Origin: Elusimicrobiota bacterium
GTDB lineage: Bacteria > Elusimicrobiota > Elusimicrobia > F11
Length of the DNA stretch: 64,000 nucleotides
Reading direction: 5' to 3'
Assembly (NCBI GenBank): GCA_044221725.1
Contig: JBGAON010000002.1
Location: forward strand, 1-64,000
In this document: in pieces, positions 26,756-50,386 of the stretch
Numbering within the stretch: the stretch's first letter is position 1
Layout: each line of letters opens with the position of its first letter
The notes under the pieces: generated by a model
The model's input: only the letters and a program-made list of their open reading frames with translations
Told to the model about the DNA's origin: nothing
Database searches by the model: none
Translations under genes and position numbers: made by a program

Positions 26756-26880
26756 TGAGCATCAGATTCCAAAAATCGATCTGCAAGTTGTGGTTCGAGA
26801 ACGTCGCTTTGCCCGACCTGTGAACTCGGTGGTCCTTAAAAAAAGCTCCGAGAACGTTGACATGTTTGCTACACTTCCGC

Positions 26881-26957
<77 letters not shown>

Positions 26958-27011
26958 TTTAAAACCATAGCTTAAGAGCAGTTAGGAAAACTTAAGTCAG
27001 CTTACATTCTC

Positions 27012-27046
27012 AAGGCGATTCGGAGTTTTTCCGGACCGCCTTTTTT
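27012..27046 (+). terminator. Probable intrinsic terminator after tRNA-fMet
   Basis: aaggcgattcgga-gtttt-tccggaccgcc imperfect hairpin followed by T6. Confidence 0.6.
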
Positions 27047-27119
27047 GTTGCCATCCCATCCAGATGACGGTTCCCTGTTTGCTCGATTTGTTGGATTTTT
27101 GGTGTGTTTAGTTATGATG

Positions 27120-27138
27120 CCGATCAGTAAACCGATCA
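27120..27138 (+). repeat. 19-bp motif copy (CCGATCAGTAAACCGATCA), putative integrase arm site
   Basis: 18/19 identical to 44675-44693. Confidence 0.8.
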
Positions 27139-27167
27139 CTTCATTGAGCGGTCGAACGAATATCAAA

Positions 27168-30131: not shown

Positions 30132-30278
30132 AAAATTCCTCCGATTGATTTGTGGCCCATTTGGTTCTTTTATCGCCCTTTGGTTCCAATCAGAGCAGCA
30201 AGAAATATCCATAGATCAGCCAAGCTTTGATCAGGTAAATTATTGTCATGGATACGTTTTTAAACGCAGAGAAAACGC

Positions 30279-30653
30279 GTGCCAGGTAGGCCGTTTGAGG
30301 CTGGAAATACAGCAGCAGTTGGGCATGGCAGGCCGAAAGGATCGAGCCGTGTGCTGACTTGCAAAGAATTTGCGGAGCGGGAAGGGTATCAGCGATTAAT
30401 TGGTCTCGCTCGCGGGGAAAGTTATCGGGTGACAAGAAACGGTCAGGATGTCGACTTGTATCCGGACCTCGATTTGATTTTTGAGTCCCTCAAACTTCTT
30501 ATGGCCTATGGAATTGGTAAGCCCGCTCAACTTCTAAATGTCACCCACAATGTTGAATCACTTGCCGATTGGGTCGCCGTGCATTTTGCATCTCAAAAAA
30601 ATCTCGCCGGAACTCCCGCTGAAAAAAAGCTTATTGACATTGATACTAAGTAG
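30279..30653 (+). CDS. DUF5681-like protein, possible terminase small subunit
   Basis: N-terminal GRPFEAGN...GRPKG motif typical of this phage family. Confidence 0.55.
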   Translation: MPGRPFEAGNTAAVGHGRPKGSSRVLTCKEFAEREGYQRLIGLARGESYRVTRNGQDVDLYPDLDLIFESLKLLMAYGIGKPAQLLNVTHNVESLADWVAVHFASQKNLAGTPAEKKLIDIDTK

Positions 30654-30669
30654 TTGATACCATGCTCGC
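30634..30669 (+). promoter_or_regulatory. Sigma70 promoter for a leaderless HTH-regulator mRNA, overlapped by 14-bp-period direct repeats
   Basis: TTGACA-18 nt-TACCAT with TG extension; ATG 6 nt after the -10; TTGATAC twice. Confidence 0.75.
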
Positions 30670-31176
30670 ATGAAAGCTGAAATCGATCATGGCCATCGCC
30701 GTTTCTTGAATATCCGAGAAGTCGCGCAAGAAACCGGATTGTCGATTCCCACCATCAAGAGGTATTCCTCTCTCAAGCTTATAACTGCACCCACTCGTGA
30801 ATCATACGGGCGAGAGGGATTCAAAGGACTTTGGTCTGTTGATGTGGTTGAAGAGATTTCAAGAATTAGCGAATTGAAAAAAGAAGGGCTTCAGATAGAG
30901 GAAATACGGGAAAAGATGAAATCCGAACCAAAGTATCGAACTTTGGTTGAGTCCTCAAATGGATATTACGATGACACCAAAATGCTTTCACTGATACGTG
31001 CAGTCCAAAACATCATGCCATCAGATGTAAATCAGGCGATCGTTTTCCAGGCGACTAAAAAAGTTGCCAAGCAATTTCTTGCCCGTGTTGAGAGGCTTAG
31101 TCGCAAAGCGCAAAAGGTATATCCCGAGTATCCAAAGGGGTACGCGGCGGGCAAGAGCAAGAAGATAAAAGCGTAA
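30670..31176 (+). CDS. MerR-like HTH regulator
   Basis: LNIREVAQETGLSIPTIKRY...LKKEGLQIEEIRE. Confidence 0.8.
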   Translation: MKAEIDHGHRRFLNIREVAQETGLSIPTIKRYSSLKLITAPTRESYGREGFKGLWSVDVVEEISRISELKKEGLQIEEIREKMKSEPKYRTLVESSNGYYDDTKMLSLIRAVQNIMPSDVNQAIVFQATKKVAKQFLARVERLSRKAQKVYPEYPKGYAAGKSKKIKA

Positions 31177-31191
31177 AATTTTTTTGTCTTT

Positions 31192-31216
31192 CATGGTATT
31201 AAACACATGGTATTAA
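31192..31216 (-). promoter_or_regulatory. Direct-repeat operator upstream of the replication operon
   Basis: CATGGTATTAA twice at 14-bp period; reverse complement matches 30640-30664 at 19/25. Confidence 0.7.
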
Positions 31217-31244
31217 TAATTAACAGAGAACGAGGTAGCTAACG

Positions 31245-32105
31245 GTGGCGAGATCCCGAGCCTTACATCAGAGATTTTTCTCAAGTGAACACAATCAACG
31301 CCTGAACGATCGGCAGCGCCTCCTATTTTTGGGCCTGATCTCTACCGCCAACGACCAAGGCAAGCAGCGGGGAAATCCTGCCATCGTTAGGGCGACCATA
31401 TTTCCCTACGATGAAATCCCATTAATGGATATCGAAAACGATTTGCGTGTTTTAGATAAGGAGGGCTTGATTGCCTGCTACCAAATCGGTGACTCCCACT
31501 ACATAAAGATTTGCAAATGGGACTCCTATCAGAGAGTCGAACATCCTGGAAAGGATGATTGCCCCAACCCGAGTATTCAGGCTACACCATCCTCCAATAT
31601 CATCGATGGAAGAGTGCATTCAGGCAGTTTTCCCGAGGATTTCGGGAAACCTTCACGAAACTCTCATGAAACCCTCATGAAGAATGAGAGAGGCGCTCTT
31701 GTAGAAGAGAAGTTAAGAGAAGAGAAGGAAGTTAGCGCAGCGACCATCGTCACCGAAGGCGCAGCGCAATCCAACGGTAGCCCTGAAAACCTAAGCCCAC
31801 CAGAAAATCCCACGAGTTCTCCAGAAATCGCTAACGCGATCTTTACATTCCCAACGAATGGATCCGTCAAGTCTTGGGACTTAACTCTCGAACGAATCAT
31901 TACCATGCGTGATCTATATCCTGGAGTTGATGTCGATCTTGAAACCAGAAAGGCCCTTCAATGGACAATCGACAATCCGAGTCGACGCAAAACAGTGAAA
32001 GGTATGCCGCGTTTTATTTCTTCTTGGCTCGAAAGAGCTCAAAACAAGTCAGCAGGGACCAAATCGAGAGCTGACAAAGGATCCGCGACATGGCCGACGG
32101 AATAA
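31245..32105 (+). CDS. Phage-type replication initiator
   Basis: N-terminal MAR.R...FF/RLLFLGL...DDQG-like wHTH region, low-complexity linker, C-terminal YPGVDV...W...NP.RRKT..GM.RFI..WL; directly upstream of a helicase. Confidence 0.75.
   Translation: MARSRALHQRFFSSEHNQRLNDRQRLLFLGLISTANDQGKQRGNPAIVRATIFPYDEIPLMDIENDLRVLDKEGLIACYQIGDSHYIKICKWDSYQRVEHPGKDDCPNPSIQATPSSNIIDGRVHSGSFPEDFGKPSRNSHETLMKNERGALVEEKLREEKEVSAATIVTEGAAQSNGSPENLSPPENPTSSPEIANAIFTFPTNGSVKSWDLTLERIITMRDLYPGVDVDLETRKALQWTIDNPSRRKTVKGMPRFISSWLERAQNKSAGTKSRADKGSATWPTE
31629..31681 (+). repeat. Iteron-like repeats inside the initiator gene (putative origin)
   Basis: GAAACCTTCAC/GAAACTCTCAT/GAAACCCTCAT 11-bp tandem plus inverted repeat TTTCCCGA..TCGGGAAA. 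Confidence 0.6.
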
Positions 32106-32926
32106 ACGAGCAAGTGAGTGAGTTGTTAAAAGCGGAAGAACGTCTTGCGCAATACGCAGGGCCGGATCGGGTCATCCATCACACTGAATTTCCACGCGAG
32201 GAACAGCAGAAGGAACATTTTTACTCTGGTATCGGTGAGCTCGATGCCGAGGTTGAGGGATTTCAACGAGGTGAGCTGGTCACGATTTCTGGTTACACGG
32301 GCCAAGGCAAAACAACATTGGCCGATACACTCGCGAAAAGGTTCATGGACACTGGAAACCCCGTCTTGTTCTTTTCATTTGAGGTTCAAATGACGGCCTT
32401 TCTTGAGAAGTATCGCGAGTCGAAAGCGTCACCTCTTTACATTCCTCTTACACTCGAAACAATGAATTTACCCTGGATCCGTGATCGCGTGCTTGAAGCG
32501 AAAGCAAAACATGGTTGCGAGGTTGTCGTAATTGATCACCTGCATTTCATAGTTGATATGGCCTTCAGGCAAAACATGTCTCTCAATATCGGTGCCTGTA
32601 TGCGTTATCTCAAAAAAGAAGTGGCCTCGATGTTAAATGTCCTTGTCATTCTTCTGGCTCATACGGCACAACCTACTGATAACGGTGAAGAATTACACCT
32701 TGGAAAGATTCGTGATTCTTCCTTCATCGCGCAGGAGAGCGATATGGTTTTAATGATCATGCGATTAGCCGATCGCCCACCTGGAAACCAAAAGCTGATT
32801 GCTCCTTCATTTTCCCAAAATCGATCTCGTTTAATGATTGAGAAAGCACGAAGAACCGGTGCATTCAAAAAGCGAATAACACTTGTTAAGCGCGGGCATT
32901 GGTTTGAAGAGGAGCTGCCTACATGA
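32090..32926 (+). CDS. DnaB-like SF4 helicase (C-terminal ATPase domain only)
   Basis: SGYTGQGKT, FFSFE, VIDHLH, IRDSSFIAQESD, KAR. Confidence 0.88.
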   Translation: MADGINEQVSELLKAEERLAQYAGPDRVIHHTEFPREEQQKEHFYSGIGELDAEVEGFQRGELVTISGYTGQGKTTLADTLAKRFMDTGNPVLFFSFEVQMTAFLEKYRESKASPLYIPLTLETMNLPWIRDRVLEAKAKHGCEVVVIDHLHFIVDMAFRQNMSLNIGACMRYLKKEVASMLNVLVILLAHTAQPTDNGEELHLGKIRDSSFIAQESDMVLMIMRLADRPPGNQKLIAPSFSQNRSRLMIEKARRTGAFKKRITLVKRGHWFEEELPT

Positions 32927-33567
32927 TCGATGGACGTGATTTCGTCATTTCTCATCTGTACGAAACGTTTCATAACCGTCCTGGTTGGCTGGCGGAAGTG
33001 ATCAAGCTCGACATACTTGATAAGGGTGAATTGGAAGATTTGGAGCGGCTTGCCGAATACCGAGACTCGGTAGAAATTGAAATAGAAAAGTGGTGTCGAA
33101 GTCTTCCAGCTTTTTACCAGATTGATGCGTTGGATTCTGATGACGAAAAATTATCTGAAGTTATGAGACGCCTTGCCGAGATTGAAGCGGCATTAGCCGA
33201 ATCTTGGCAACGGAACGATCACTATATTTTCAGGCAGGGAATTAGAGCCCGATCGAACTACAAACAATTGTGTGCTTATCGAGAAAAGCTACTACGGCGT
33301 GTTCATCATAAAGAGCCAGTGGCATTTCGATTGTCCGAAAGTCGATTGGAGCAGGCCCGTCAGGTCCCATTAGAAAAGCTGGTTCAGCCAAACGCCAGAG
33401 GGTATGTGAATTGTCTTTGGCACGAGGACGAGAATCCATCGATGTTGGTCAAAAACGGATATGCATGGTGTTTTGCTTGCTGCACTTGGGCTGATTCGAT
33501 CAAGTGGATACAACAAGAAAGAGGTCTCTCATTTGGAGAGGCCGTTTCGTGGTTAACTGCTATATGA
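32923..33567 (+). CDS. CHC2 zinc-finger (primase Zn-binding domain) protein
   Basis: CLWHEDENPS...WCFAC...DSI.W......SFGEAV. Confidence 0.8.
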   Translation: MIDGRDFVISHLYETFHNRPGWLAEVIKLDILDKGELEDLERLAEYRDSVEIEIEKWCRSLPAFYQIDALDSDDEKLSEVMRRLAEIEAALAESWQRNDHYIFRQGIRARSNYKQLCAYREKLLRRVHHKEPVAFRLSESRLEQARQVPLEKLVQPNARGYVNCLWHEDENPSMLVKNGYAWCFACCTWADSIKWIQQERGLSFGEAVSWLTAI

Positions 33568-34133
33568 CCGATATGTCTCTGCCATTATTTCAGAAGTATT
33601 CAACCGTAGTTGCCGACCCCCCGTGGCAATTTCGGCGGCAACCGCGTTCAGTCAGTCCTGGATATAAGCTCCTGACTTTGGACGAAATAAAAAGAATCCC
33701 ACTAAAAGATATTTCCAAAGAAAACTCTCATCTGTATCTATGGATTCCAAATGCGTTTATCAAAGAAGGTGTGGAAGTAATGCAGGCATGGGGATTTGAA
33801 TATAAGACCGTAATCACTTGGGCAAAACACCAAATTGGGGTCGGTAATCATTTCAGAAATTCCACCGAGCAAATTCTCTTTGGAGTGCGTGGGCGTCTTC
33901 CATTGTTGCGCCGTGATTTGCGGACCTGGTTCTTAGCTGACCGCCGCCAACACAGTCGCAAGCCCGACGAATTTTATCGACTGGTGGAATCAGCCTCGCC
34001 GGCGCCGCGGATCGATATTTTTTCGCGTGAAAAGCGAGAGGGATGGGACCAATGGGGAGACCAAATTAATTTTTTCAATCAACAAATACAGGAGGCAGAC
34101 CATGTCGGAACAAAAACCACTACTAACAGCTAA
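33564..34133 (+). CDS. MT-A70 family adenine methyltransferase
   Basis: ADPPW, LYLW, AWGFEY, W.K, FRNSTE, HSRKP, IFSRE. Confidence 0.92.
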   Translation: MTDMSLPLFQKYSTVVADPPWQFRRQPRSVSPGYKLLTLDEIKRIPLKDISKENSHLYLWIPNAFIKEGVEVMQAWGFEYKTVITWAKHQIGVGNHFRNSTEQILFGVRGRLPLLRRDLRTWFLADRRQHSRKPDEFYRLVESASPAPRIDIFSREKREGWDQWGDQINFFNQQIQEADHVGTKTTTNS

Positions 34134-34296
34134 GCAAGCAGCAGTATTTTTGGGTGTATCGATTTTCACTCTGTACGGATGGACCAGCGCCGGGAAAATT
34201 CCTCACAGGAAAGTTGGGAGCCTCCTGCGGTTCGACGAAAACGAGCTCGTTCAGTGGACGAAGTTGCACGGCCAACTGGCAGTAAAAATAGCTTGA
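34102..34296 (+). CDS. Excisionase-family HTH protein
   Basis: LLTAKQAAVFLGVS..TLY.W...GKIP..KVG..LRF; SD GGAGG. Confidence 0.88.
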   Translation: MSEQKPLLTAKQAAVFLGVSIFTLYGWTSAGKIPHRKVGSLLRFDENELVQWTKLHGQLAVKIA

Positions 34297-34325
34297 TCGA
34301 TCGAGATGATCTGATCAATGATCGG
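34295..34325 (-). repeat. Inverted copy of the 19-bp motif / GATC cluster upstream of the integrase
   Basis: Reverse complement of 34307-34325 is CCGATCATTGATCAGATCA (16/19); five GATC within 34295-34323. Confidence 0.7.
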
Positions 34326-34372
34326 TAGGTTTAGCTGTGTTTATTTAAGTCTATCGATTGTGAGGTGAATTT

Positions 34373-35485
34373 ATGGCTATTAGGTTGATCGATTCGCAAA
34401 AGAAAAAATATCGGATTTCTTTCTGGTATCGAAAACGGCATTACGCCAAGGTGGTCTGTGGTAATAGAGGAATCGCCGCAGACTTGGAGGCTCGAATGAG
34501 AACCGCGCTTGCAGAAAATCGTTACTTTCCTGAACGGAAAATTAGAGAGATGTCATTCAAGGATGTTGCGAAAAAGTTTTTGGCTGAATGCCGAACATTT
34601 GAGCGGTCCAAACATAAAGTGCGAATTTATATAGCAGGGTGTCTAAAAGAGTTTGGAGTCATGAAAATGAATGAAATCCGCTCGCAAGATGTCGCGAGCT
34701 TTCGAGATGAACTTGGTAAGCGAATGAGTCCCGTTTCTGTAAACCACTATCACCGTGTTCTGAGAAGGTTATTCAACTGGGCAAAAGAAGAACATTTGTT
34801 CTTAGGTGAGAATCCTGCGTCCGGTAAAAGGGTCCCGTTGGCAAATGAGCGTCCGTTTTGGCGATCTGAATTTTTATCGGAAGAAGAGCTGCAGAAAATT
34901 CTTGAAGTGGCAGATGAAAAAATAAAACCAATTATCCTTTGCGCGGCATTGACGGGGATGCGTTTAAATGAAATCAAGCGAATGAAAGGACAGGATGTTG
35001 ATTTAGATCGGTGCGTGATTCGGATTCCAGAGAGTAAAAATGGGGAATCTGGATGGGTTCCAATCCCTGATACGCTTTATTCGGCCATTGCTCCCGTTAT
35101 CAAAAATAGCTCTGCGGCAGAAAACCAAGTATTCAACTTCACAAATTTCGAGCGAATGTGGAAACGAGCTCGGTTGAATGCAGGAATTAAGATGCGATTC
35201 CATACCCTTAGGCACACTTACGGCTCGCATTTAATGATGAAAACGGGAAATCAGGGGGCAGTGCAATCACTGCTCCGACACAAATCCCCTGCTATGACGG
35301 CCCGCTATGCACACTTGGCACCAAGCTTTTTGAGGCAAGCAGCGCTTACTCTCGACAAAATGTTTCCGTCAAAAGGTCCTGCGTTGAACAACGGGGCAGC
35401 TGAGGCCGCAACCATTTCAACCGAGGAGTTATCTGATTCAGGAGGGCACTTAATTTTAGACACAAAAGAAAATAAAAATGAGTAA
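34373..35485 (+). CDS. Tyrosine recombinase/integrase
   Basis: TGMRLNE (R), SKNG (K), HTLRH, LRH, TARYAH (Y); N-terminal arm-binding-like region. Confidence 0.96.
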   Translation: MAIRLIDSQKKKYRISFWYRKRHYAKVVCGNRGIAADLEARMRTALAENRYFPERKIREMSFKDVAKKFLAECRTFERSKHKVRIYIAGCLKEFGVMKMNEIRSQDVASFRDELGKRMSPVSVNHYHRVLRRLFNWAKEEHLFLGENPASGKRVPLANERPFWRSEFLSEEELQKILEVADEKIKPIILCAALTGMRLNEIKRMKGQDVDLDRCVIRIPESKNGESGWVPIPDTLYSAIAPVIKNSSAAENQVFNFTNFERMWKRARLNAGIKMRFHTLRHTYGSHLMMKTGNQGAVQSLLRHKSPAMTARYAHLAPSFLRQAALTLDKMFPSKGPALNNGAAEAATISTEELSDSGGHLILDTKENKNE

Positions 35486-35496
35486 CGGAGGAAATT

Positions 35497-36036
35497 ATGA
35501 TCATAGCTGCAGATGTTGGGTGTGAAAAATGTAACTCAAAAATAACGCATTTGAAGGATATTCAAATCGAGCAATTTGATTCGGTCCGGCTTTCGATTTG
35601 TGAATGCCTAGATTATTTTAATGCAGAGCTGAGCACCAAGGATCCGCGAGAGAAGGAAATCGAAATGCTACTGCGCGGAGAAGGTATTGCAAGAGAACGA
35701 ATTCCAGACGTTATTTTTAAGATTGGGCTTGTGATGACTGATGATGGATTGGGATTTGGCGACCTTACACTACATATTGGTATTGGAACAATAGAGCCGG
35801 TGTGGAATGCCTTGATTCAGAGATGGCCTCTACCAGAGTTTCCAGACGAAAATCCAGAAAACATCCAATCTGATTGCAAGGTCGATTTGGATTTATTGAT
35901 GTTGGAAGTATTTAGAAATCAAAAGAAAAAATATTTAAAAAATGAAGATATCAACCGGATGTTTCGGTGGCCATTAAAATTATTGGCTGCGGCGGGAAGA
36001 ATCCATCTTGGCAAGGAATGCTGGCGTCTCAAATAG
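35497..36036 (+). CDS. Hypothetical protein (CxxC...CxC N-terminus)
   Basis: SD GGAGG; lies in an operon between the integrase and terminase. Confidence 0.7.
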   Translation: MIIAADVGCEKCNSKITHLKDIQIEQFDSVRLSICECLDYFNAELSTKDPREKEIEMLLRGEGIARERIPDVIFKIGLVMTDDGLGFGDLTLHIGIGTIEPVWNALIQRWPLPEFPDENPENIQSDCKVDLDLLMLEVFRNQKKKYLKNEDINRMFRWPLKLLAAAGRIHLGKECWRLK

Positions 36037-36040
36037 TTCT

Positions 36041-37495
36041 ATGGCCGCTGGAAAAATCGAAGAGCTACCGGATTTAAGTGCATTCCAAAATAAGATCAGA
36101 AATGATCCAGCTTTCTTCTTACGTGAATGTTTGGGCCTCCATCCATGGGAAATGGAAATAAAAATCATCGAATCAGTTCGGGACAACCCCAAAACTCTTG
36201 TAGCGGGCTGCGTATCTTCCGGAAAAACCCATGCAACCGCTGGGTTGGTGTTTTGGTGGCTCATGGCTTATGCGCCAATGGCACGTATATTTTGTCTCGC
36301 CCCAACTGAACGCCAACTCAAAATTAACCTCTGGCGTGAAATTCCACGGATGCACAGCGCGTCCAAAGTCAAATTAGGCGGAGAAATGATGCCGCTCTCT
36401 CTCCAGTACCGACTCGGCGATGACTGGTACGCGTTGGGGTTTAGCCCACAGGATGAAATGGGTGTGTTCGGAATTCACGGCCCTCATGATTTGATTGTCA
36501 TTGATGATGCTCAGGGCTTGAAACAGGAAATTTGGGAGGCATTGGAGAATGCCATGGCCGGGGGCACCACACGGCTCCTGGCATCATGCAATCCCGTCGT
36601 GACCAGCGGCGAAATTTACGAGGCCATGACATCGAAGCGAGGAAAATACAATGTCATCCGAATTCCCGCAGGAATCACACCCAATGTTAAAGAAGGAAAA
36701 ATAATTATTCCTGGAATGATTACTAAGGAAACCGTTGACCGCTGGATTCAGGAATATGGAGAGGATTCTGATTTTGTCAGAACGAAAGTGAAAGCCCTTC
36801 TTCCAAAACAGGAACCAGACACGCTTATTCCATTGGATTGGATCGAGGCAGCAATGGAGCGGGAGATCGAAGTTTCAAACGAGTATCCGATTTTGGGAGT
36901 TGATGTCGCTCGATTTGGTGACGATAGAACAGTAATTTTCCCAGTCCACGGGCTTAAAGCAATTGATCCAGTCATACTTCAAGGCGCCGATACCATGGCA
37001 GTGGCAGGAAGAGTCAAATTTGAAATGGAAAACCATAAAGCTGGTGCAGCATTTGTTGATGTCATTGGAATTGGGTCTGGGGTGTGTGATCGGTTAGCGG
37101 AGCAAGGCGTGGTTGTTTATCCTGTGAATGTCGCATCCAAAGCGCGGAACGAAAAGAAGTTCGTTAATTTACGTAGTGAAGTATGGTGGGCTGCACGAGA
37201 AGCATTGGACCCCAAAAACCAAAACATCTATTCCTTGCCCAATAACAAGCACTTGATGGCGGAATTGGCGGCATCCAAGTTTATGGTCGATTCTTCTGGT
37301 CGCATTCGGGTTGAACCCAAAGATGAGATGAAAAAGCGCCTCGGTCACTCACCTGACTTGGCTGATGCGTTCTGCTTGGCGATGTATGGCCGGTTCGTTT
37401 TACAGCTTCAGGCGTATTACGCTTCGGACCTTGAGGATGGAGATTCTTTTATTGATTTGGATGGAGTGTCACCGTCCTCAATTGTTTTTTCTTAG
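36041..37495 (+). CDS. Phage terminase large subunit
   Basis: Walker A GCVSSGKT, APTERQ, Walker B IVIDDA, CNP coupling motif, RNase H nuclease LGVDVAR.GDD and SPDLADA. Confidence 0.9.
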   Translation: MAAGKIEELPDLSAFQNKIRNDPAFFLRECLGLHPWEMEIKIIESVRDNPKTLVAGCVSSGKTHATAGLVFWWLMAYAPMARIFCLAPTERQLKINLWREIPRMHSASKVKLGGEMMPLSLQYRLGDDWYALGFSPQDEMGVFGIHGPHDLIVIDDAQGLKQEIWEALENAMAGGTTRLLASCNPVVTSGEIYEAMTSKRGKYNVIRIPAGITPNVKEGKIIIPGMITKETVDRWIQEYGEDSDFVRTKVKALLPKQEPDTLIPLDWIEAAMEREIEVSNEYPILGVDVARFGDDRTVIFPVHGLKAIDPVILQGADTMAVAGRVKFEMENHKAGAAFVDVIGIGSGVCDRLAEQGVVVYPVNVASKARNEKKFVNLRSEVWWAAREALDPKNQNIYSLPNNKHLMAELAASKFMVDSSGRIRVEPKDEMKKRLGHSPDLADAFCLAMYGRFVLQLQAYYASDLEDGDSFIDLDGVSPSSIVFS

Positions 37496-37711
37496 ACGGG
37501 TAGCTCTCGAAGCTACCACGCAAACAAGTAGAGTCTTCCAGAAACAATTGGAATTTAGCGACTTTGAGAATTTAACAGAATCCTGTTACAAGGATGTGTT
37601 CGTTTTTCTGATCAACTCTCGAACATTGATAACCTTGGGTAATTCATACTTTCAATTCTAAAATCCAGGATAACTCTTGATTGTGATGTGGTTTCCTGCA
37701 AAAATAACCCA

Positions 37712-37969
37712 ATGAAGAAATGGATTCCCTTATTCTTGTTCTTGGTGTTCGCGCATGACATCGCCATCGATGCCTTCGACGCTGATTGCCAAGATAAAGC
37801 GGGAGCTGTGTGTCACACTTGCGTTTGTCAGACCCACTTCGTCAATCCAGTTATTGGCACTCAGCAAAAACTATCGGTTTCAACTGAGTACGCTCCTGCT
37901 CCCGAACCTATTTTAGCCTTCAAAGATTTCTCCAAGTCTCTTTTCCGCCCTCCTAAAGCTCTCGCCTAA
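37712..37969 (+). CDS. Small secreted CxxC protein with C-terminal RPP; putative DUF2946/CruR-like arrest leader
   Basis: Signal peptide, CHTCVC, ...SLFRPPKALA; directly upstream of tolC-czcA. Confidence 0.65.
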   Translation: MKKWIPLFLFLVFAHDIAIDAFDADCQDKAGAVCHTCVCQTHFVNPVIGTQQKLSVSTEYAPAPEPILAFKDFSKSLFRPPKALA

Positions 37970-38060
37970 TCGACCGTCACGGCGGTCCATCCCAACAATA
38001 GTTTGAAATTCAGCCCATCGATATTTGTCGATGGAGAAGTGTTTTATCTTAGGAGTTTCC

Positions 38061-39326
38061 ATGCGAAATCTATTTGCACGTCATGTCATATTTTTTCTGT
38101 CGTTGTTTTTGTTCATAGTTACGTTTATTAGTGCAGCCGAGCCGGTTTACACGATTCCCCAAGTGGTATCGATGGCTCTGAAAGAGAACCCTCTTCTTAT
38201 TTCTGAGTCGGCGCGTGTAGAGGAGAAACGATTGGCTGGAAGCCAATCAAGAAACTGGTCTGGCCCGTCTGTGGAGGTGGCCGCCGGTCAGCGTAAAGAC
38301 GAAAGCAATTCCGGATCCCGTTTCGAGGCGGCTATTTCCCAACCATTGCCGTTGTCAGGAAAGCAGGGCCTTCGTGGTCGTTTGCTTGATTTGGAATCCG
38401 AGTCTTGGAAAGCCCAGCGAGCCGCATCGGAGGCGATGATCACCTTGAACGTCGTTCGCCTTTCCTTTGAATATGCGATCAACCGGCGTCTGGCGAATTT
38501 TGTCGTTATGCGTCAAAAGCGGTTTTCACTCATCAAGTCCTATATGGAAGGCCGCGTGTTTCCATCTCCTCAAAAGAAAGCAGAAAGCCGCATTGTCCAA
38601 AATCGCATGAATACCCTCCTGTCTGCAGCGTTGCAATCCCAGGCAAGTTATCGAGCCTCATTTGAAGACCTTCGCGTCTACGCCCCCATGGAATCGGGAA
38701 TCTATCCTGAAATAAATATTCCATGGTATGCAGGGTCAAAAAATCTCGACGCTTCCGATGGATTGGAAAAAGCTCTCAAGAATAATCCCGATCTCCGTTT
38801 AAGAGAATTATCGGTCAAAAGCACTGAGATAGAAAAAGCACTGGCCTCAAAAGAACGATGGCCGGACACTGCATTAATCGCCTCCTATGAAGAAGGAAAA
38901 GCAACGGAGAAGGAAACAAACACGGGGGTAGGGATCGGGCTTGAATTCCCCTATTGGAATGGAAACCGGTCTGGATTAAAAAGCTTAGAGAAAAAGAAGA
39001 TTGCAGAACAAGGATTACGTGATCTTCAGGAGCGGCAAATAAAAGCTGATTTGCCTCGGGCGCTGATTGAGTTCGAGGCCGCTCGAAGCGCAGTAAAAGA
39101 ATACCCCGAATCGTTACTCAATGAAATCGAAACGAATCTCCGTGGGTCGGAGGAAGGATTTCGAAAAGGCCAGGTGGATCTTCTGACATTTTTGGAATTA
39201 GACGATTCCTCGGCTGAAACCTATCGCCACATCCTTGAAGCACAGATGAATTATGTGACGAAAGCAACAGAGCTTTTACGCTTAACCGGTGAGCAAGACA
39301 TCCTCGCCCGCCTTGAGTCCTTGTAA
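38061..39326 (+). CDS. TolC/CzcC family outer-membrane efflux protein
   Basis: ALKENP, ISQPLPLSGK, ALKNNPDL, FRKGQVDLL; SD AGGAG. Confidence 0.88.
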   Translation: MRNLFARHVIFFLSLFLFIVTFISAAEPVYTIPQVVSMALKENPLLISESARVEEKRLAGSQSRNWSGPSVEVAAGQRKDESNSGSRFEAAISQPLPLSGKQGLRGRLLDLESESWKAQRAASEAMITLNVVRLSFEYAINRRLANFVVMRQKRFSLIKSYMEGRVFPSPQKKAESRIVQNRMNTLLSAALQSQASYRASFEDLRVYAPMESGIYPEINIPWYAGSKNLDASDGLEKALKNNPDLRLRELSVKSTEIEKALASKERWPDTALIASYEEGKATEKETNTGVGIGLEFPYWNGNRSGLKSLEKKKIAEQGLRDLQERQIKADLPRALIEFEAARSAVKEYPESLLNEIETNLRGSEEGFRKGQVDLLTFLELDDSSAETYRHILEAQMNYVTKATELLRLTGEQDILARLESL

Positions 39327-39336
39327 GGAGACCCAA

Positions 39337-42300
39337 ATGAAAACACGAATTTTGGAATGGACGTTAAAAAATAGAATCGGAGTTACATTGTTTTTTGCGT
39401 TGGGAGCGGGAATTGGTCTTTATGCTCTCACCACGTTACCGGTAGATGCAGTGCCAGACATTACACCAGTGCAAGTCATGGTGAACACAAAAACCAAAGC
39501 GCTCGATCCTGAGCAAGCCGAGAAAACCGTTTCCTTCCCTATCGAAACTGAGATGAGTGGGATTGCGCACGTCAAAGAAGTCCGATCTCTTTCTAAGTAT
39601 GGGCTTTCTCAGGTCGTCATAAATTTTGAGGACGGCACAAATATTTACTGGGCGAGACAGCAAGTATCGGAACGGCTTCAAAGCGTTCAGGGTGAGTTGC
39701 CTGAAGGGTTATCGCCAGAGTTGGCTCCGATAACAACGGGACTGGGAGAAGTGGTGATGTATGTGGTTCAAGCAAAACCTGGGACCATTTTGGCGGAAAA
39801 GCCGGAAAAAGAACGGCTCCTATATCTCCGAACCATTCAGGATTTCGTTATTGCTCCTACCCTTAAAAGATCGGTTAAGAACGTGGCAGAAGTAGATTCA
39901 ACCGGTGGGTATAAAAAGGAAATTCACATCGAGATTTTCCCGAAAAAATTGGAAACACATGGCTTGAGCATTGAACAAGTGGTTGAACGCCTGGAAGGAC
40001 TTGGCGAGAATTTTGGAGGAGGTTACATTCAGCCTGGTGGTAAACAAGTGATTGTACGAACGTCAGGACGGCTCCATGATTTGAAAAGTATTGGCACTCT
40101 TTCCGTTAAATTAGACGTGAGCGGCAGGCCTATTCCACTTTCGAGCGTGGCGGAAATTCGTGAGGATTATTCTCAGCGAATGGGCGGCGCGACGTATGAC
40201 GGTAAAGAAACGGTCTTGGGAACCGTGCTGATGTTAAGCGGCGCAAACTCAAGACAAGTGGCGATAGATACCGAGCAAGCACTTAAGGATGTCGCTCTGC
40301 CTGCCGACGTAGAGACGAAGCTTCTCTACAGTCGAAGTTATCTCGTTAACGCGACCCTAAAAACCGTGGCGAAGAATTTGGCGGAAGGTGCCGCTCTTGT
40401 GATCGTGATTCTCCTTTTAATTTTGGGGAATTTCCGAGCGGCGGTGTTTGTGTCTTTGGCCATTCCATTGTCGATGTTATTTGGCGTGATAGGAATGAAA
40501 TGGTTGGGAATCTCAGCGAGTCTTATGAGTTTAGGTGCTGTAGATTTTGGACTTCTCGTGGATGGCGCAGTGGTCATGATTGAAAACGCTCTTCGTCGTT
40601 TGGAAGAGCATCAAGGGCCGCTTGATCATGAAAAGAGATTCAAACTGATTCTGGACTCGGCTTCCGAGGTGATCAAGCCAGTTGGTCTTGGCCTTCTCAT
40701 TATCATGCTTGTATATGTTCCGATCCTTTCGTTGGAAGGAATCGAAGGGAAGCTTTATCATCCGATGGCCGTCACGGTGCTGATGGCGCTCGGTGCATCG
40801 CTTCTCGTTGCCGTATTCCTCATGCCGGTTCTCGCTTACTTTTTCTTGCGTCCTCCCAAAGGCGGCGGAAAGGAAGAGAAATTTGTTTATCGATCCTTAA
40901 AAAACCTCTATCAGCCCGTTTTGGATCAGAGTTTGGCTCGGCCTTGGCTGGCATTAGTCCCTTCGATAATTCTTATCGTTGTTGCACTATTTATCTTTCA
41001 ACGACTGGGAGGAGATTTCATGCCGCCGCTTGATGAAGGCGACATGGTTATCAATCTAACGAGAGAGTCGGATATTGGTGTTGACGCATCTCTTGAAATG
41101 CAAGGAAAGAGTGATGCCGTGATCAAACAATTCAGCGAGGTAGAGCACGTTTTCTCGCGCATCGGAACGCCAGAATCAGCGACCGATCCGATGGGTGTAC
41201 ATCTTGCGGATACGTTCGTGATTCTTAAGAAGAACCATTCTCTATGGAAGAAAAATTCCGATGGAAAAGTTCGATCGAAAAAAGAACTTTACGATGCCAT
41301 TAAAGATGCGTTGGAAAAAGAAATCACTGGTCAAGATGTGAATGAAAACCAACCAATCGAAATGCGATTCAGTGAAATTATGGAAGGAAGCCGAGCGGAT
41401 GTCACATTAAGGATCTATGGGAAAGATCTTCCTGTCCTCCTTGGGTTGCTTGAGAAGTCGATCTCCATCCTCAAAGATGTTCCTGGAACAGAAGCAGTCG
41501 AGATGGACGCTTTGACGGCGCTCCGAAAAAGTCCTGTGTTAAGTGCTGAGCCGAATTACACGGCTATTGCTCGATATGGACTTGATGTTCATCATGTGAA
41601 CCGGCTCTTGGAAGCCGCGATGGGTGGAAAGGAAGTGGGAAGCTTCTACGAGCATCAATGGCGGTTTCCTATCGTTCTCCGAGTTGAAGAGGAAAGCCGT
41701 GAGAATATTGAAACCATTAAGTCTCTTCCAGTTGGATTGCCGGATGGAGGCACCATTCCGCTTCACAAAGTAGCCAACTTTGAACGGACGGAGGAAGTAA
41801 CCACCATCGCTCACGATTACTCACAGCGGTATGCCGCAGTGGCCGTGTTTCTTTCGGGGCGGGACATTCAAAGTTATGTAAAGGAAGCACGTAAGGTAAT
41901 TGGAGATAAATTGGATCTTCCCGAAGGGTACAGCATCAGTTGGGGTGGTCAATTTAAAAATCTCGAACGTGCTCGAAAACGCTTGGCTCTTATTGTGCCG
42001 CTGGTATTAATTGGGATACTTGTCATTCTCTGGCGTGCGTTCGGAAGTTTTTCACAGGCGATGCTAGTTTACACTGCTGTTCCGCTCGCGATGACTGGCG
42101 GCGTTTTCGCATTGGCGATGAGAGGCATTCCCTTGAGTGTTTCGGCATCCGTTGGATTTATCGCTCTAATGGGGATTGCGATTTTAAATAGCATGGTGCT
42201 TGTCAGCTTTTTCAATCAACTCCGATTAAAGGGTATGACCGCGCATCAATCCGCTAGAGAGGGAGCGTTAACACGATTGCGGCCTGTGGCGATGACGGCG

Positions 42301-42471
42301 CTTGTCGCCAGCCTTGGGTTTGTGCCGATGGCTTTGAATACCGGCATCGGTGCCGAAGTTCAACGCCCGTTGGCAACGGTTGTAATTGGCGGACTTGTAA
42401 CATCAACTTTGTTGACACTCATTCTAGTCCCTGCGCTTTATAAATTGTTTGGAGGAAAACAGCATGAATAA
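39337..42471 (+). CDS. czcA: Heavy-metal RND efflux pump, CzcA/CusA family
   Basis: DAVPDIT, MSLGAVDFGLLVDGAVVMIEN (CzcA-type DFG..DG..VEN), RLRPVAMT, EVQRPLATVVIGG. Confidence 0.9.
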   Translation: MKTRILEWTLKNRIGVTLFFALGAGIGLYALTTLPVDAVPDITPVQVMVNTKTKALDPEQAEKTVSFPIETEMSGIAHVKEVRSLSKYGLSQVVINFEDGTNIYWARQQVSERLQSVQGELPEGLSPELAPITTGLGEVVMYVVQAKPGTILAEKPEKERLLYLRTIQDFVIAPTLKRSVKNVAEVDSTGGYKKEIHIEIFPKKLETHGLSIEQVVERLEGLGENFGGGYIQPGGKQVIVRTSGRLHDLKSIGTLSVKLDVSGRPIPLSSVAEIREDYSQRMGGATYDGKETVLGTVLMLSGANSRQVAIDTEQALKDVALPADVETKLLYSRSYLVNATLKTVAKNLAEGAALVIVILLLILGNFRAAVFVSLAIPLSMLFGVIGMKWLGISASLMSLGAVDFGLLVDGAVVMIENALRRLEEHQGPLDHEKRFKLILDSASEVIKPVGLGLLIIMLVYVPILSLEGIEGKLYHPMAVTVLMALGASLLVAVFLMPVLAYFFLRPPKGGGKEEKFVYRSLKNLYQPVLDQSLARPWLALVPSIILIVVALFIFQRLGGDFMPPLDEGDMVINLTRESDIGVDASLEMQGKSDAVIKQFSEVEHVFSRIGTPESATDPMGVHLADTFVILKKNHSLWKKNSDGKVRSKKELYDAIKDALEKEITGQDVNENQPIEMRFSEIMEGSRADVTLRIYGKDLPVLLGLLEKSISILKDVPGTEAVEMDALTALRKSPVLSAEPNYTAIARYGLDVHHVNRLLEAAMGGKEVGSFYEHQWRFPIVLRVEEESRENIETIKSLPVGLPDGGTIPLHKVANFERTEEVTTIAHDYSQRYAAVAVFLSGRDIQSYVKEARKVIGDKLDLPEGYSISWGGQFKNLERARKRLALIVPLVLIGILVILWRAFGSFSQAMLVYTAVPLAMTGGVFALAMRGIPLSVSASVGFIALMGIAILNSMVLVSFFNQLRLKGMTAHQSAREGALTRLRPVAMTALVASLGFVPMALNTGIGAEVQRPLATVVIGGLVTSTLLTLILVPALYKLFGGKQHE

Positions 42472-42889
42472 TTGGATTCTTTATGCAGTAGGAGCCGCCG
42501 TTCTTTATGGGCTCCATCAAGTCTTCACAAAATTAGCATCACCCCACATCGGCGATGGTGTTGGAGGTTTTATTGTGGAGGCGACGGCGGCACTTACTAT
42601 TGCCGTTTATTTAATTGGGCTAAAGCTTGCTGGGAAGTGGGATCAGGGAATTTCAACACAAGGAATTGCATATTCGGCGTTGACCGGCCTTTGCGTTGGG
42701 GTCGGGACCATTTTCTTTTTCCTGCTTTTTCAAAAGGGCGGGCCGTTGTCCGCAGTTCCCATGGTTCTGGCCGGAGGAGCAGCGATCATGGCCATTATCG
42801 GTATTGTCTTTTTTAAAGAACCAGTTAGCATGTTTCGGGTTGCCGGAATTGGTTTTGCCGTGGTTGGTTTGGTTCTTTTACGTTATTAA
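42464..42889 (+). CDS. EamA/DMT family small transporter
   Basis: 5 TM helices, FFKEP motif. Confidence 0.8.
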   Translation: MNNWILYAVGAAVLYGLHQVFTKLASPHIGDGVGGFIVEATAALTIAVYLIGLKLAGKWDQGISTQGIAYSALTGLCVGVGTIFFFLLFQKGGPLSAVPMVLAGGAAIMAIIGIVFFKEPVSMFRVAGIGFAVVGLVLLRY

Positions 42890-42894
42890 ATCCG

Positions 42895-43125
42895 ATGGAT
42901 AATCTCACTCTTTTTGGCCTATTCGCGGTTTCATCCATGCTTATATGTTATGCGCTTGAGAAGCGCAGTCCATGGTTTATCCTGGGATTCGCCGTTGCCT
43001 GTGCGTTGGGGTCGATTTATGGATTTCTTCAGGGGGCCTGGCCGTTTGGAGTCGTAGAAGCGATATGGTCGGTCGTTGCAATGAAACGATGGTGGTCGAC
43101 TAAGAGGACTGGTACTGATCAGTAA
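42895..43125 (+). CDS. Small 3-TM membrane protein
   Basis: YALE, YGFLQGAWPFGVVEAIW. Confidence 0.8.
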   Translation: MDNLTLFGLFAVSSMLICYALEKRSPWFILGFAVACALGSIYGFLQGAWPFGVVEAIWSVVAMKRWWSTKRTGTDQ

Positions 43126-43235
43126 TCCGATTATTGTCGAAATACGGTACTGAAATTCCCATCGAAAACCTCTCGAATTTCGCTACAACCAATGCGTGGG
43201 GTAAATCAGCTCGGTAGCACTCAAAGTCACTAAGC
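43115..43235 (+). pseudogene. Relic att site: 19-bp motif plus decayed 5' half of tRNA-fMet
   Basis: Motif 17/19 at 43115; 43195-43235 matches tRNA nt 1-41 at 26/41 ungapped, 80 bp after the motif, the same offset as 44675 to 44755. Confidence 0.7.
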
Positions 43236-43250
43236 TATTATTTTATCGCG

Positions 43251-43709
43251 CTAGCAGCATCCGCTGCCGGACTTAATCGGTATCGCACCAGCCTTAGGTT
43301 GCCCACACGCCTCTTTGGCCAAGCAATCAGTATGTTTGTACCCAAGTTGCAGAACGACTTCTGCCTCCGTCACCTTGGCTCCAGTTACCGGATATTGGGA
43401 AATAACACCGCGCTCATACTCTACTTCGAGCGGAAGCTGATCCACTGGGATGATGCTCTCGGATAGCTTAAGGATTTTGCCGAGCTTGGCAGAGGAGAGT
43501 CTGTGATCGACGTCGGAACCGAGCCAAGTTTGAAGAACGCATGCCGTAGTCGATCGAGCCTTTCCGCCGCAATCGATAAACGTTTTCGTCACTTGCCCAA
43601 CTTCGGTTACATGGAATGATTCGGGGACACTTGTGCCATCGTTGAGTTGAATCCGTAACGCTCGATCTGGAATTTCTGAAAGGAGTATCTTCAATTCATT
43701 TAATTGCAT
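43251..43709 (-). CDS. DUF6428-like arsenic-operon protein
   Basis: FHVTEVG...FIDCGG, LEVEY, HTDCLA, C-terminal GSGCC. Confidence 0.8.
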   Translation of the reverse strand: MQLNELKILLSEIPDRALRIQLNDGTSVPESFHVTEVGQVTKTFIDCGGKARSTTACVLQTWLGSDVDHRLSSAKLGKILKLSESIIPVDQLPLEVEYERGVISQYPVTGAKVTEAEVVLQLGYKHTDCLAKEACGQPKAGAIPIKSGSGCC

Positions 43710-43711
43710 GG

Positions 43712-44170
43712 TTATTTGCCTCCCACCGGAACTCCGCTACTGATCATCTTGATGAATTCGATGACCTTCGCCTCAATTTCCTTGCGCACTCCGATTGTGC
43801 GGGTCAATTTTTCCTCGTGAGTTCCTTGGAAGCTCGATGGGTCCGCAAAACTCCAATGGATGCGTTTCGTGACCCCTGGGAATATAGGGCATCGCTCGGC
43901 GCTTGTTTCATCGCATACCGTGATGACATAGTGAAGCATCCTGCCTTCCTTAAACAAATCAAACACCCTTTTGGTTGGGTTCTTAGAAATATCGATCCCT
44001 ATATCGGCCATGGCCTCGATAGCGAGAGGATTTAGCTTACCTGGCTCAAGGCCAGCGCTTTCCACTTCAAAATCATCACCGCCAAATTTCTTAAGTAGCG
44101 CCTCTGCCATTTGGCTTCGCGCAGAGTTGTGAATACAGACAAACAGAACCTTCGTTTTCTTTTTTTGCAT
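43712..44170 (-). CDS. arsC: Thioredoxin-dependent arsenate reductase (LMWPTP fold)
   Basis: CIHNSARSQMAE, ITVCD....E.CP.FP, HWSF.DP; SD AGGAGG. Confidence 0.92.
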   Translation of the reverse strand: MQKKKTKVLFVCIHNSARSQMAEALLKKFGGDDFEVESAGLEPGKLNPLAIEAMADIGIDISKNPTKRVFDLFKEGRMLHYVITVCDETSAERCPIFPGVTKRIHWSFADPSSFQGTHEEKLTRTIGVRKEIEAKVIEFIKMISSGVPVGGK

Positions 44171-44204
44171 AGCTCCTCCTAAATTAACCGCCATCGACAC
44201 CGTC

Positions 44205-44224
44205 ATATTCGCTTACACAGATAT
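44205..44224. promoter_or_regulatory. Putative second ArsR operator upstream of arsC
   Basis: ATATTCGCTTACACAGATAT, 15/20 identical to 44589-44608. Confidence 0.55.
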
Positions 44225-44242
44225 ACTCATCAAAAAAAGGGG

Positions 44243-44590
44243 TTAGCAGCATCCGAACTTCCGGCAATCCAAACCTTTTAAAATCTTTTTGTCCTTCGCG
44301 AAGATCGGCGCATCTTCCAAACAGTCGCCGATGCAGGCCAACAGACCCTTATGAAAGGTTCCAGTGGGTTTGGCCAATGAGTAGTAAATCCATTGGCCTT
44401 CCCGCGTGGTTTCAACCAGTCCGTGCCGGCGTAGATAGGCCAGGTGACGTGAAATTTTAGGCTGGGGTGCCTTAATGACGGACATGATGTCGCAGACACA
44501 AAGCTGGCCGTTTGAGAGTAGACTCAAAATACGGAGGCGAGTCTCATCAGCGAAAGCTTTTAGAAGGTTGTTTGGGGAATCGTTGCTCAT
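44243..44590 (-). CDS. arsR: ArsR/SmtB repressor
   Basis: ADETRLRIL, LCVCD, QPKISRHL, REGQWIYYSL, C-terminal CC. Confidence 0.93.
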   Translation of the reverse strand: MSNDSPNNLLKAFADETRLRILSLLSNGQLCVCDIMSVIKAPQPKISRHLAYLRRHGLVETTREGQWIYYSLAKPTGTFHKGLLACIGDCLEDAPIFAKDKKILKGLDCRKFGCC

Positions 44591-44608
44591 ATTCGTTTAG
44601 GCGAATAT
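44589..44608. promoter_or_regulatory. ArsR operator palindrome at the arsR start
   Basis: ATATTCG-N6-CGAATAT perfect inverted repeat overlapping the start codon. Confidence 0.7.
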
Positions 44609-44674
44609 ACAAATCCAACATTAAAGAGGCAAGATCGGTTATTTGGCTACCATTAGCTGCTTTTCGAGGCATTC

Positions 44675-44693
44675 CCGATCAGTAATCCGATCA
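44675..44693 (+). repeat. 19-bp motif reference copy CCGATCAGTAATCCGATCA
   Basis: Two CCGATCA heptamers at 12-bp period, 80 bp before the second tRNA. Confidence 0.8.
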
Positions 44694-44754
44694 GTCGCAA
44701 AATCACCTTCGAAAAACCTCCTCGAAAGTGACTCAAAATAAATTACAATCAGTC

Positions 44755-44831
<77 letters not shown>

Positions 44832-44841
44832 TTTCCAAAAG

Positions 44842-45102
44842 GGTCCTGCCCGAGCCTGGCGGTAACAGAAAGTACCGATCACATGGGTTACACTATTTTC
44901 GCAGCGAAGGGATACGGTAGCGGCTCGAACCTTCTGCTCGTTTCATCAAAGTAGCCCAGATCATACTCCATAAAGCTGACCAACCAGATTCTGTCCCGAA
45001 CTTCGGGTGCGGACGTTGTGTATTGAACTCTTCGATATGTTCTCTCGAAACCTCGAAGGAGTTTGCCGTTGACGTTGTATCCAACCCGACTCTTATCCGA
45101 CA
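44842..45102 (-). mobile_element. Internally deleted IS481-family remnant
   Basis: Peptide EVRDRIWLVSFMEYDLGYFD...PLPYPFAAK resembles IS481 transposase C-termini; end repeats TGTAACCCATGTG../TGTTACC; the other end begins TGTCGGATAAG. Confidence 0.7.
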
Positions 45103-45125
45103 TAAGAGCTGGTATAATTAGCCCA

Positions 45126-50078: not shown

Positions 50079-50107
50079 GTTGCCCTTCGTTCACGTTAGG
50101 TATGAAG

Positions 50108-50126
50108 CCGATTAATAATCCGATCA
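50108..50126 (+). repeat. 19-bp motif copy CCGATTAATAATCCGATCA at the end of the copper module
   Basis: 17/19 identical to 44675-44693. Confidence 0.7.
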
Positions 50127-50386
50127 ATGTGGTTACCATTCAGTCGTTTTGAATAGCGGTACCTGTTCGGTTTTTAAACGACGAGCAGTGTGAGCTTTGT
50201 TTCAAAGTTCTCAAGCGGCTTGAAGCTGCCGGAATTTTGCGTCAAATTGTTTCCAAGAAAACATCGAAGTGCTTGATCAGTTGAGAGGGAAAGCACGCCA
50301 TGGTGTTCAAGGCGCCCGTTATCAAGAGACCGTTTCTGGAGACGAGATATTTCGGCAAAGCGGTGATATCTGTAATGTCCAGCGAA

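Follow-up and report, generated by a model that had tools for sequence, protein, structure and literature searches.

How did the decayed 5′ part of an initiator tRNA gene (tRNA-fMet) come to lie upstream of a complete copy of that gene, with ars genes between the two? The question is raised by positions 43115–43235 of the window, by which we mean the whole 64,000-nucleotide stretch of contig JBGAON010000002.1 from an Elusimicrobiota bacterium that was analysed here. The first-pass annotation took the partial tRNA for an old attachment (att) end with its crossover near the anticodon loop and gave the ars genes a separate integration history. We read 43115–43235, with fair confidence, as a decayed copy of the arm–leader–tRNA-front unit that precedes the tRNA-fMet gene at 44755 and as what is likely to be a dead internal att junction from the tandem accretion of tyrosine-integrase elements. 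Such elements would insert ahead of the initiator tRNA gene and provide it anew with a promoter and 5′ end. The two units are homologous, units of this kind recur at tRNA-fMet across the class and they are associated with one integrase clade.

The relic unit and its intact counterpart

All parts of the relic lie on the forward strand. It opens with a tandem motif, CTGATCA-N5-CCGATTA (43115–43133), which we take to be the integrase arm-type sites of a relic P arm; a 76-amino-acid open reading frame (42895–43125) has its stop codon inside this motif. A promoter-like element, TCGAAA-16-TACAAC (43162–43189), ends 5 bp before nucleotide (nt) 1 of the tRNA part, of which nt 1–24 are kept at 18 of 24 positions (43195–43218) and end in the left core-like segment AGCTCGGTAGC. 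At the predicted 7 bp overlap position (nt 25–31; 43219–43225) the relic reads ACTCAAA as against TCGCGAG in both intact tRNAs, a 3/7 match, and is predicted to be unable to recombine with the outer sites of the surrounding island. Weak residual similarity to nt 32–41 follows (5/10; 43226–43235), after which comes neither a tRNA 3′ half nor a P′ arm.

The intact P arm (44675–44754, forward strand) carries CCGATCA-N5-CCGATCA at 44675–44693 and TCGAAA-16-TACAAT at 44722–44749, and leads into the complete tRNA-fMet gene that forms the right outer att site (44755–44831, forward strand; predicted overlap 44779–44785). The last base of the relic −10 hexamer departs from the TACAAT of the intact copy, and the relic promoter is accordingly predicted to be weak or dead. 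A promoter scan called the intact copy (44722–44749) only, and found no more sites than in shuffled sequences, so the promoter-like reading rests on position: TCGAAA-16-TACAA(C/T) stands 5 bases before nt 1 in both arms, at the site of the −10-like hexamer in the native tRNA-fMet loci of relatives. In native loci and element arms alike this hexamer occupies bases 11 to 6 before nt 1, leaving only 5 bp to the mature 5′ end, a spacing that points to initiator tRNA transcripts with almost no leader in this class. Directly after the right tRNA, 44840–45103 (reverse strand) holds the C-terminal remnant of a transposase (53–63% over 38–43 amino acids to annotated transposase/integrase-core proteins), which we presume to be IS481-like.

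The 41-mer quoted in the first-pass annotation is 43195–43235, and realignment confirms its ungapped match to tRNA-fMet nt 1–41 (44755–44795) at 26 of 41 positions. The reported motif-to-tRNA distance of 80 bp also holds at both places (43115 to 43195 and 44675 to 44755). The shared spacer words survive in part: TCGAAA (43162/44722) and TACAA (43184/44744) are in register, but 'tcgaaaa' at 44709 does not line up. Over the whole unit, 43115–43235 agrees with 44675–44795 at 76 of 121 positions, ungapped and at an offset of 1560, whereas 20 neighbouring offsets give only 21–38.

A shuffle control and a tRNA search had been proposed as checks. In the former, 43100–43250 and 44660–44810 aligned with a local score of 94, which none of 2000 dinucleotide shuffles reached (mean 33.0, s.d. 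5.5, maximum 61), and chance is thereby refuted; with the motif left out the score is 65.5, again reached by 0/2000. Singly, the spacer score is reached by 25 and the tRNA score by 18 of the 2000 shuffles, and genome-wide the 26/41 of the tRNA part is the top non-tRNA site, yet 25/41 occurs at three others. The tRNA part being weak by itself, it is the in-register combination of motif, spacer and tRNA part that makes the relic significant. A profile built from 16 arms outside the window matches 43109–43220 with an E value of 8e-11, the second-best match in the genome after the intact arm, and its match ends at tRNA nt 26; a spacer-only profile matched neither window arm. Together with the motif–leader–5′-part units of relatives, the profile upholds the earlier view that the relic, like the arm before the tRNA at 44755, is an att end of this type.

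Chance similarity, or a simple local duplication of 44675–44795, would suit a tRNA part barely above genome background when taken alone, but is hardly credible against the shuffles, the independent profile and a spacer at least as close to the arm of relative G007. The relic spacer agrees with the neighbouring arm at 33 of 61 positions, with that of G007:C76 at 35/61 and with that of G001:C35 at 32/61, and it shares TTCCC.TCGAAAACC.C with the latter two. Since it is as close to the arms of other genomes as to its neighbour, two different element lineages are indicated, not a local duplication. Nor is the relic an assembly artefact: a contig from run X1, a possible source, covers 26928–44783 and one from run X7, of another study, covers 43109–43459, both with 0 differences.

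The tRNA search did not recover the relic. At E values up to 10 on 42900–45100, Rfam called it neither tRNA nor intron, and the intact tRNA was the only real match. It is accordingly very improbable that the relic is a functional small RNA, a decoy in the form of a tRNA half or the 5′ exon of a tRNA-fMet split by an intron. Its promoter-like leader, the group I introns in tRNA-fMet of relatives G003 and G024 and an RNA-library contig over 43109–43459 (no proof of transcription) would fit such a product, but no intron or RNA family appears up to that E value, neither an intron nor a 3′ exon follows the relic and no 3′ half or exon for it is found in the genome, the −10 box has changed and the substitutions differ among relics of different genomes. 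Intron-split tRNA-fMet genes, interrupted in the anticodon loop, were seen in the L032:4380-4655 region (G003:C113), at L034:8824-9560 (G024:C10), in L033 (G037:C11) and at L073:16490-16830 (G081:C1). In G003 and G024 the Rfam group I intron is above the gathering score; in G081 the split tRNA-fMet lies directly behind an element-type arm, and there was no Rfam intron call in L046.

The 17.9 kb island and its relatives

The relic sits in a 17.9 kb island bounded by two complete tRNA-fMet genes (26881 and 44755). These are the two copies of initiator-type tRNA-Met in the genome and are 76/77 identical; they lie within an 81 bp direct repeat with one mismatch (26880–26960 and 44754–44834). The left gene (26881–26957, forward strand; predicted overlap 26905–26911) is the left outer att site. 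The two outer sites keep arms and identical TCGCGAG overlaps, so the 17.9 kb composite is predicted to excise as one, carrying the ars genes. The two genes differ only at nt 67 (T at 26947 on the left, C at 44821 on the right). In G002, G004 and G007 T67 goes together with A7; by comparison, the left copy, with G7 and T67, looks like a hybrid of a host 5′ part and an element 3′ half.

A P′ arm follows the left gene (26958–27138, forward strand), with a terminator-like hairpin read from the sequence at 27012–27046 and a motif at 27120–27138; similar arms come after tRNA-fMet in G007 and G002. Directly inside the left att site, 27045–30131 encodes a 1028-amino-acid protein with nine DUF4379 treble-clef repeats and endonuclease-like PHROG matches, and G002 has a short similar open reading frame after its own P′ arm. 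The phage-like body (27139–43114, forward strand) holds endonuclease-like, replication initiator, DnaB, primase-like, MT-A70 and terminase-large-like genes and then TolC/CusA-type efflux and EamA cargo. On the same strand lie an excisionase-like HTH_17 gene (34102–34296) and a tyrosine integrase (34373–35485) of 370 amino acids in an open frame (PF00589, E 1e-26; phrog_1; below the Xer and integron cut-offs). The tyrosine integrase within the interval, the tRNA gene and same-strand copy at its ends and the same-strand relic 5′ part upstream of the intact tRNA are the marks of an Islander-type island. The DNA between the two tRNA genes is lower in GC, at 0.43–0.49 as against about 0.52. The distance of the integrase from the outer att sites, 7.4 and 9.3 kb, counts against our explanation.

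Within the window the CCGATCA-N5-CCGATCA motif is found at 27120, 43115, 44675 and about 50108, and inverted at 34325 before the integrase. The inverted copy, GATCATTGATCAGATCA (34307–34325, reverse strand), is a candidate autoregulation site; inverted motifs likewise precede homologues in G071 and G056. The fourth site belongs to an isolated P′-type arm relic (50096–50160, forward strand) that agrees with 27108–27138 at 26/31 positions and is 78% identical to G001:C35:308-365; no tRNA part stands before it. A 43-codon fragment without a Pfam match follows it, which to our eye presumably resembles the start of GSU2403-type nucleotidyltransferases, and downstream of the tRNA, 50096–50284 is likely to preserve the left end of a third element as a relic. 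The heptamer ACTAAGC (43229 and 50037) was considered as a duplicated core and dropped: it is a 7-mer in differing contexts, and no core lies 142 nt before the motif at about 50109.

A tRNA search in 41 genomes gave many 5′-only matches, and the arm motif, with up to one mismatch, is present in 47 of 251 genomes of the class. A census that used the motif alone covered 82 non-redundant matches, among them chance matches and copies in the window. For 30 of these, and for 14 of the 20 exact matches, a tRNA 5′ part or core was flagged in the vicinity, mostly at 77–83, 129–131, 139–146 or 229–248 nt. Two layouts are typical. In one, the motif is followed by 79–83 nt with TATAAT or TACAAT and then a whole tRNA; in the other, motif and leader are followed by nt 1–33 only, with a second motif 139–143 nt from nt 1. 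The layout of the window is repeated in G032, where motif, TATAAT and nt 1–33 lie about 1.5 kb upstream of motif, TATAAT and whole tRNA. Similar units occur in G025, G217 and G013, and in G032 and G025 the sole full-length tRNA-fMet match is preceded by an element-type arm. Close analogues of the relic, with an arm and 5′ part and then non-tRNA sequence, are L258 and G007:C76.

With 5′ fragments upstream of the intact gene and element DNA directly before the rebuilt tRNA, the layout indicates that in relatives the elements are located on the 5′ side of the tRNA and supply it with a promoter-like leader and the 5′ end. In G002 and G007 the whole tRNA is followed by a terminator-like arm as at 26958, from which we infer that elements of the window's family carry the whole tRNA in attP. 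As regards the native site, G007 has addA, the tRNA and then a related element, and in G002 different cargo separates addA from hppA; among the relatives compared, none showed an allele precisely empty of this element. A scan of genome collections returned at least 119 stretches, mostly chance, and among the matches listed family-type cores occur only in records titled Elusimicrobia or Elusimicrobiota. Of the matches from viral scans (five and four), the five are chance or host tRNA clusters and the four are absent from the 98-row junction listing described below.

Integrase homologues at 44–54% identity adjoin the motif or the tRNA. In a tree of 33 rows, from which three short fragments were left out, the window integrase falls in a ten-member clade (support 100/100), and only one of the integrase loci with the motif lies outside that clade. 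An intact tRNA stands directly after the integrase on the same strand in 15 of 29 homologue loci; clade members in G030 and G069 lie beside a whole tRNA-fMet with no strict motif, which counts against our explanation. A second class of arms (81 nt, with neither tRNA nt 1–12 nor a −10 box) accompanies symmetric non-tRNA cores near integrase homologues of 44–48% identity, at L024:17682, L025:13498, L073:13237, L095:3164, L378:26 and L173:6082, and the clade members concerned seem to use non-tRNA sites. Motif-delimited modules of 1–3 kb with no integrase, in L079 (G076), L081 (G050), L076 (G044), L080 (G038) and L073 (G081), hold addiction-module, Fic and methyltransferase genes and form cassette-like arrays.

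Position of the crossover

The similarity had been said to stop just after the anticodon loop, which the pair of sequences is too weak to fix. Beyond the 18/24, 3/7 and 5/10 given above, nt 42–77 agree at 10/36; nt 25–41 match at 8/17, borderline above chance (P 0.04 at 25% background), and the cumulative log-odds are flat, from 37.5 at nt 24 to a maximum of 39.3 at nt 42. As aligned, the pair fixes the right boundary of the relic only to within nt 24–42.

Thirty core-to-P′ junctions at tRNA-fMet were hand-picked from 98 rows and kept if a recognisable downstream arm lay at 139–143 nt; the other rows are whole-tRNA sites, upstream-arm sites or chance matches. Eight of the junctions come from genomes and 22 from a metagenome scan that fixed nt 17–24 and the motif, so left-side conservation is there by construction. 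The rows are related, and most are from bacterial families other than the window's, whose attP holds the whole tRNA and thus cannot itself show the crossover.

The last matching base in these junctions is nt 25, 26, 28 or 30 (one each), nt 31 (12), nt 32 (five) or nt 33 (nine), and identity runs from 29/30 at nt 31 through 17/30 at nt 32 and 11/30 at nt 33 to 0/30 at nt 34. The last match never falls inside nt 34–39 in this selected set, and the proposed crossover near the anticodon loop is probably wrong. A block at about nt 15–31 is shared by 12 junctions with a non-tRNA left side. In the P′ junctions nt 28–31 track the host tRNA isoform (TCGG, CAAG or CGAG), which, with the drop at nt 31/32, is simplest if nt 28–31 lie inside the overlap; six non-tRNA cores are variable at nt 25–31 and keep GCT/GCA at nt 32–34. 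Strand exchange would probably border a 7 bp overlap at gene nt 25–31 (end of the D-stem to the 5′ anticodon stem), flanked by AGC and GCT and lying 8 nt before the anticodon loop, and not the loop itself.

Two other positions were weighed. An overlap at nt 21–27 (TAGCTCG), centred between the longer inverted repeats GCCT/AGGC, has symmetry in its favour, with GACAGCC...GGCTGTC in G025 and GCCT...AGGC in G071 and G056 centred on nt 24; all variant cores keep TAGC, and G007:C76 breaks at nt 20/21. We nevertheless find it unlikely, because nt 28–31 follow the host isoform, identity drops at nt 31/32 and TAGC was partly fixed by the search. The other is a crossover in the anticodon loop (the Islander A site) that left a 5′ half now uniformly decayed, in keeping with the 8/17 over nt 25–41 and the peak of the log-odds at nt 42. 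Motif-linked 5′ halves of tRNA-Thr, tRNA-Gly and two tRNA-Arg do end two bases (GC) past the anticodon loop, and there an identity block covers the loop, which is flanked by GC/GC. The loop of tRNA-fMet is flanked by GG/CC, with AGC-N7-GCT 8 nt upstream, and no identity block covers it: none of the 30 motif-linked junctions reaches nt 34, and the log-odds gain only 1.8 between nt 24 and nt 42. The 5′ halves in G019:C66 and G034:C26 that reach nt 39–46 are without the motif of this family. A loop crossover at tRNA-fMet is therefore doubtful in our judgement. Those longer halves, three in tandem at L021:6378, 8886 and 12640 (G019:C66) and one at L030:9560 (G034:C26), have no CCGATCA motif and probably represent another, anticodon-loop family of upstream elements.

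Origin of the relic and of the ars module

In the mechanism that we propose, the CCGATCA tandem repeats would be arm-type binding sites of the integrase at 34373. The attP would carry the arm, promoter and tRNA 5′ part and, in the window's bacterial family, also the 3′ half and terminator, which would explain why both island ends are whole tRNAs. The relic would be the former right end of the phage-like/efflux element. The ars module (43251–44590, reverse strand) comprises arsR (44243–44590), an arsC-like LMWPc gene (43712–44206) and DUF6428 (43251–43709), without an integrase of its own; with the arm at 44675 it may be what remains of a second, adjoining element. The two elements would have come into tandem at tRNA-fMet, and the junction between them would then have lost function and decayed, while the second would have lost its left part, either through an ordinary deletion or because the integrase acted on a secondary site beyond DUF6428. 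Its diverged overlap and −10 box would leave the relic inert, the outer sites being used for excision and the ars module being captured cargo. Tandem accretion should also have left a P′ arm behind the relic, and its absence there counts against this mechanism.

A variant differs from this explanation only in how the junction arose. The same att relic could stem from an arm-bearing site and a secondary, non-tRNA site past DUF6428, by insertion or by deletion from a tandem junction, in which case the sequence after nt 24 was never tRNA. The identity does fall right after TAGC (nt 24), as in L258 and the non-tRNA cores of G025, G081, G071, G056 and L173, and neither a 3′ half nor a P′ arm follows. 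Against this, no matching inner left junction was found between 27138 and 43115, the overlap position has only 3/7 identity to the tRNA and the DUF6428 flank of G004 is no closer to the right part of the relic than shuffles are; we regard the variant as possible, though the less probable origin. A DUF6428 homologue occurs in two of 251 genomes, that of the window included, and in the other, G004, its context is unrelated and has no arm motif. Two identifications of the bases after the relic were dropped: the G004 ars/DUF6428 flank, whose score 27% of 5000 shuffles reach, and a decayed P′ arm, since P′ profiles are silent at 43222–43260.

On the explanation by tandem accretion, upstream-type geometry puts the newest element beside the rebuilt gene, which fits the earlier description of the relic as an older end; a secondary-site origin needs no such order. 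The separate history claimed for the ars module is likely only: the spacers come from different lineages (33/61), but no relative lacking 43236–44674 was found among five relatives or four contig sets, in which contigs cannot show absence. Nor did those four sets yield a trustworthy excision joint; two listed joints at tRNA ends have 22–33 bases on the short side and are likely to be from other organisms. The interval 43236–44674 contains only DUF6428, arsC-like and arsR, and thus no integrase or transfer genes, as in a CIME; its right arm is intact, but the left end is without a P′ arm and has the 3/7 overlap. By its gene content and ends, the ars module would work like a captured CIME remnant and is not an intact CIME.

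Suicidal splitting of the integrase gene is a feature of pTN3-like integrases; it does not apply here, where att lies outside the integrase gene. In that archaeal group a tRNA 5′ half serves as attB, and an element-derived promoter drives expression of the rebuilt tRNA, a situation that the review, citing Williams 2002, describes as seldom met in bacteria (PMC8371274). The 5′-part att and the promoter-like element leader before the rebuilt tRNA, here predicted from sequence, are alike, but the pTN3-type att described there includes the anticodon loop. Islander counts 159 islands with a 5′ fragment among 3919, lists 125 tandems and distinguishes crossover classes in the anticodon loop (A), T loop (T) and T/acceptor junction (J) (Hudson, Lau and Williams, PMC4383910). 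The island shares with them the tyrosine integrase, the same-strand 5′ fragment upstream of a tRNA gene and the tandem junctions; the predicted nt 25–31 site is none of the A, T and J classes given there, and the filters described reject both whole-tRNA outer sites and an integrase-less internal module of <2 kb (PMC4383910).

Islands at Klebsiella arg2A also lie upstream of the tRNA, at a D-loop sublocation described as novel, with a repeat of 5′ acceptor strand, D-stem and D-loop (10.1101/2020.11.02.365908). We liken them by site, not by integrase kinship: that case concerns tRNA-Arg in Enterobacteriaceae, whereas here the target is an initiator tRNA, identity extends to nt 31 and there are an arm motif and promoter-like leader. 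For ICEs and IMEs at the 3′ ends of genes, tandem accretion at one att site and the formation of CIMEs have been described (PMC5704250). Common to both are an integrase-less remnant in tandem with an integrase-bearing element, an internal chimeric att and a composite that could excise via its outer sites; unlike the cases described there, the element is phage-like, the geometry is of the 5′ type and only the right arm of the ars module is intact. In the cyanobacterial Tycheposon islands repeated integration at a single tRNA leaves partial copies of it behind and moves older cargo further into the island (10.1101/2020.12.28.424599), a likeness of pattern in the partial tRNA copies and not a tested kinship. 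Published work thus already covers 5′-fragment islands, accretion in tandem and a site in the D-loop; what differs here is the predicted cut just before the anticodon loop. Our literature search found no description of this clade, motif or nt 25–31 site, and the TIGER/Islander data may already list such islands.

The relic itself is an ordinary scar, and its moderate interest lies in the family behind it. For an integrase clade not yet characterised, the family defines a testable attB (about nt 14–34 of tRNA-fMet) and an arm motif. These arrays would escape island finders that discard full-tRNA matches and intervals <2 kb. For a wider proposal we see the grounds for and against as evenly balanced: the clade, whose named carriers are Elusimicrobiota, may keep a GC-N7-GC core preference, met in the anticodon loop of tRNA-Thr, tRNA-Gly and tRNA-Arg and at nt 25–31 in the initiator tRNA, while its elements would take charge of transcribing the sole initiator tRNA gene of the host and the 5′ stubs left behind would act as spare landing sites, so building arrays of 1–6 kb integrase-less modules (toxin–antitoxin, Fic, restriction and metal genes), the relic being one such stub. 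It would be a natural case of an integrase shifting its sublocation within tRNA genes with the core signature kept, and so bears on tRNA site choice. If the GC-N7-GC reading is true, DNA sequence and not tRNA stem symmetry would determine the site, and the A/T/J scheme would have no place for this tRNA sublocation. If the promoter reading holds, G032 and G025 would make their only detected initiator tRNA from element DNA, an arrangement rare in bacteria according to the review cited above (PMC8371274).
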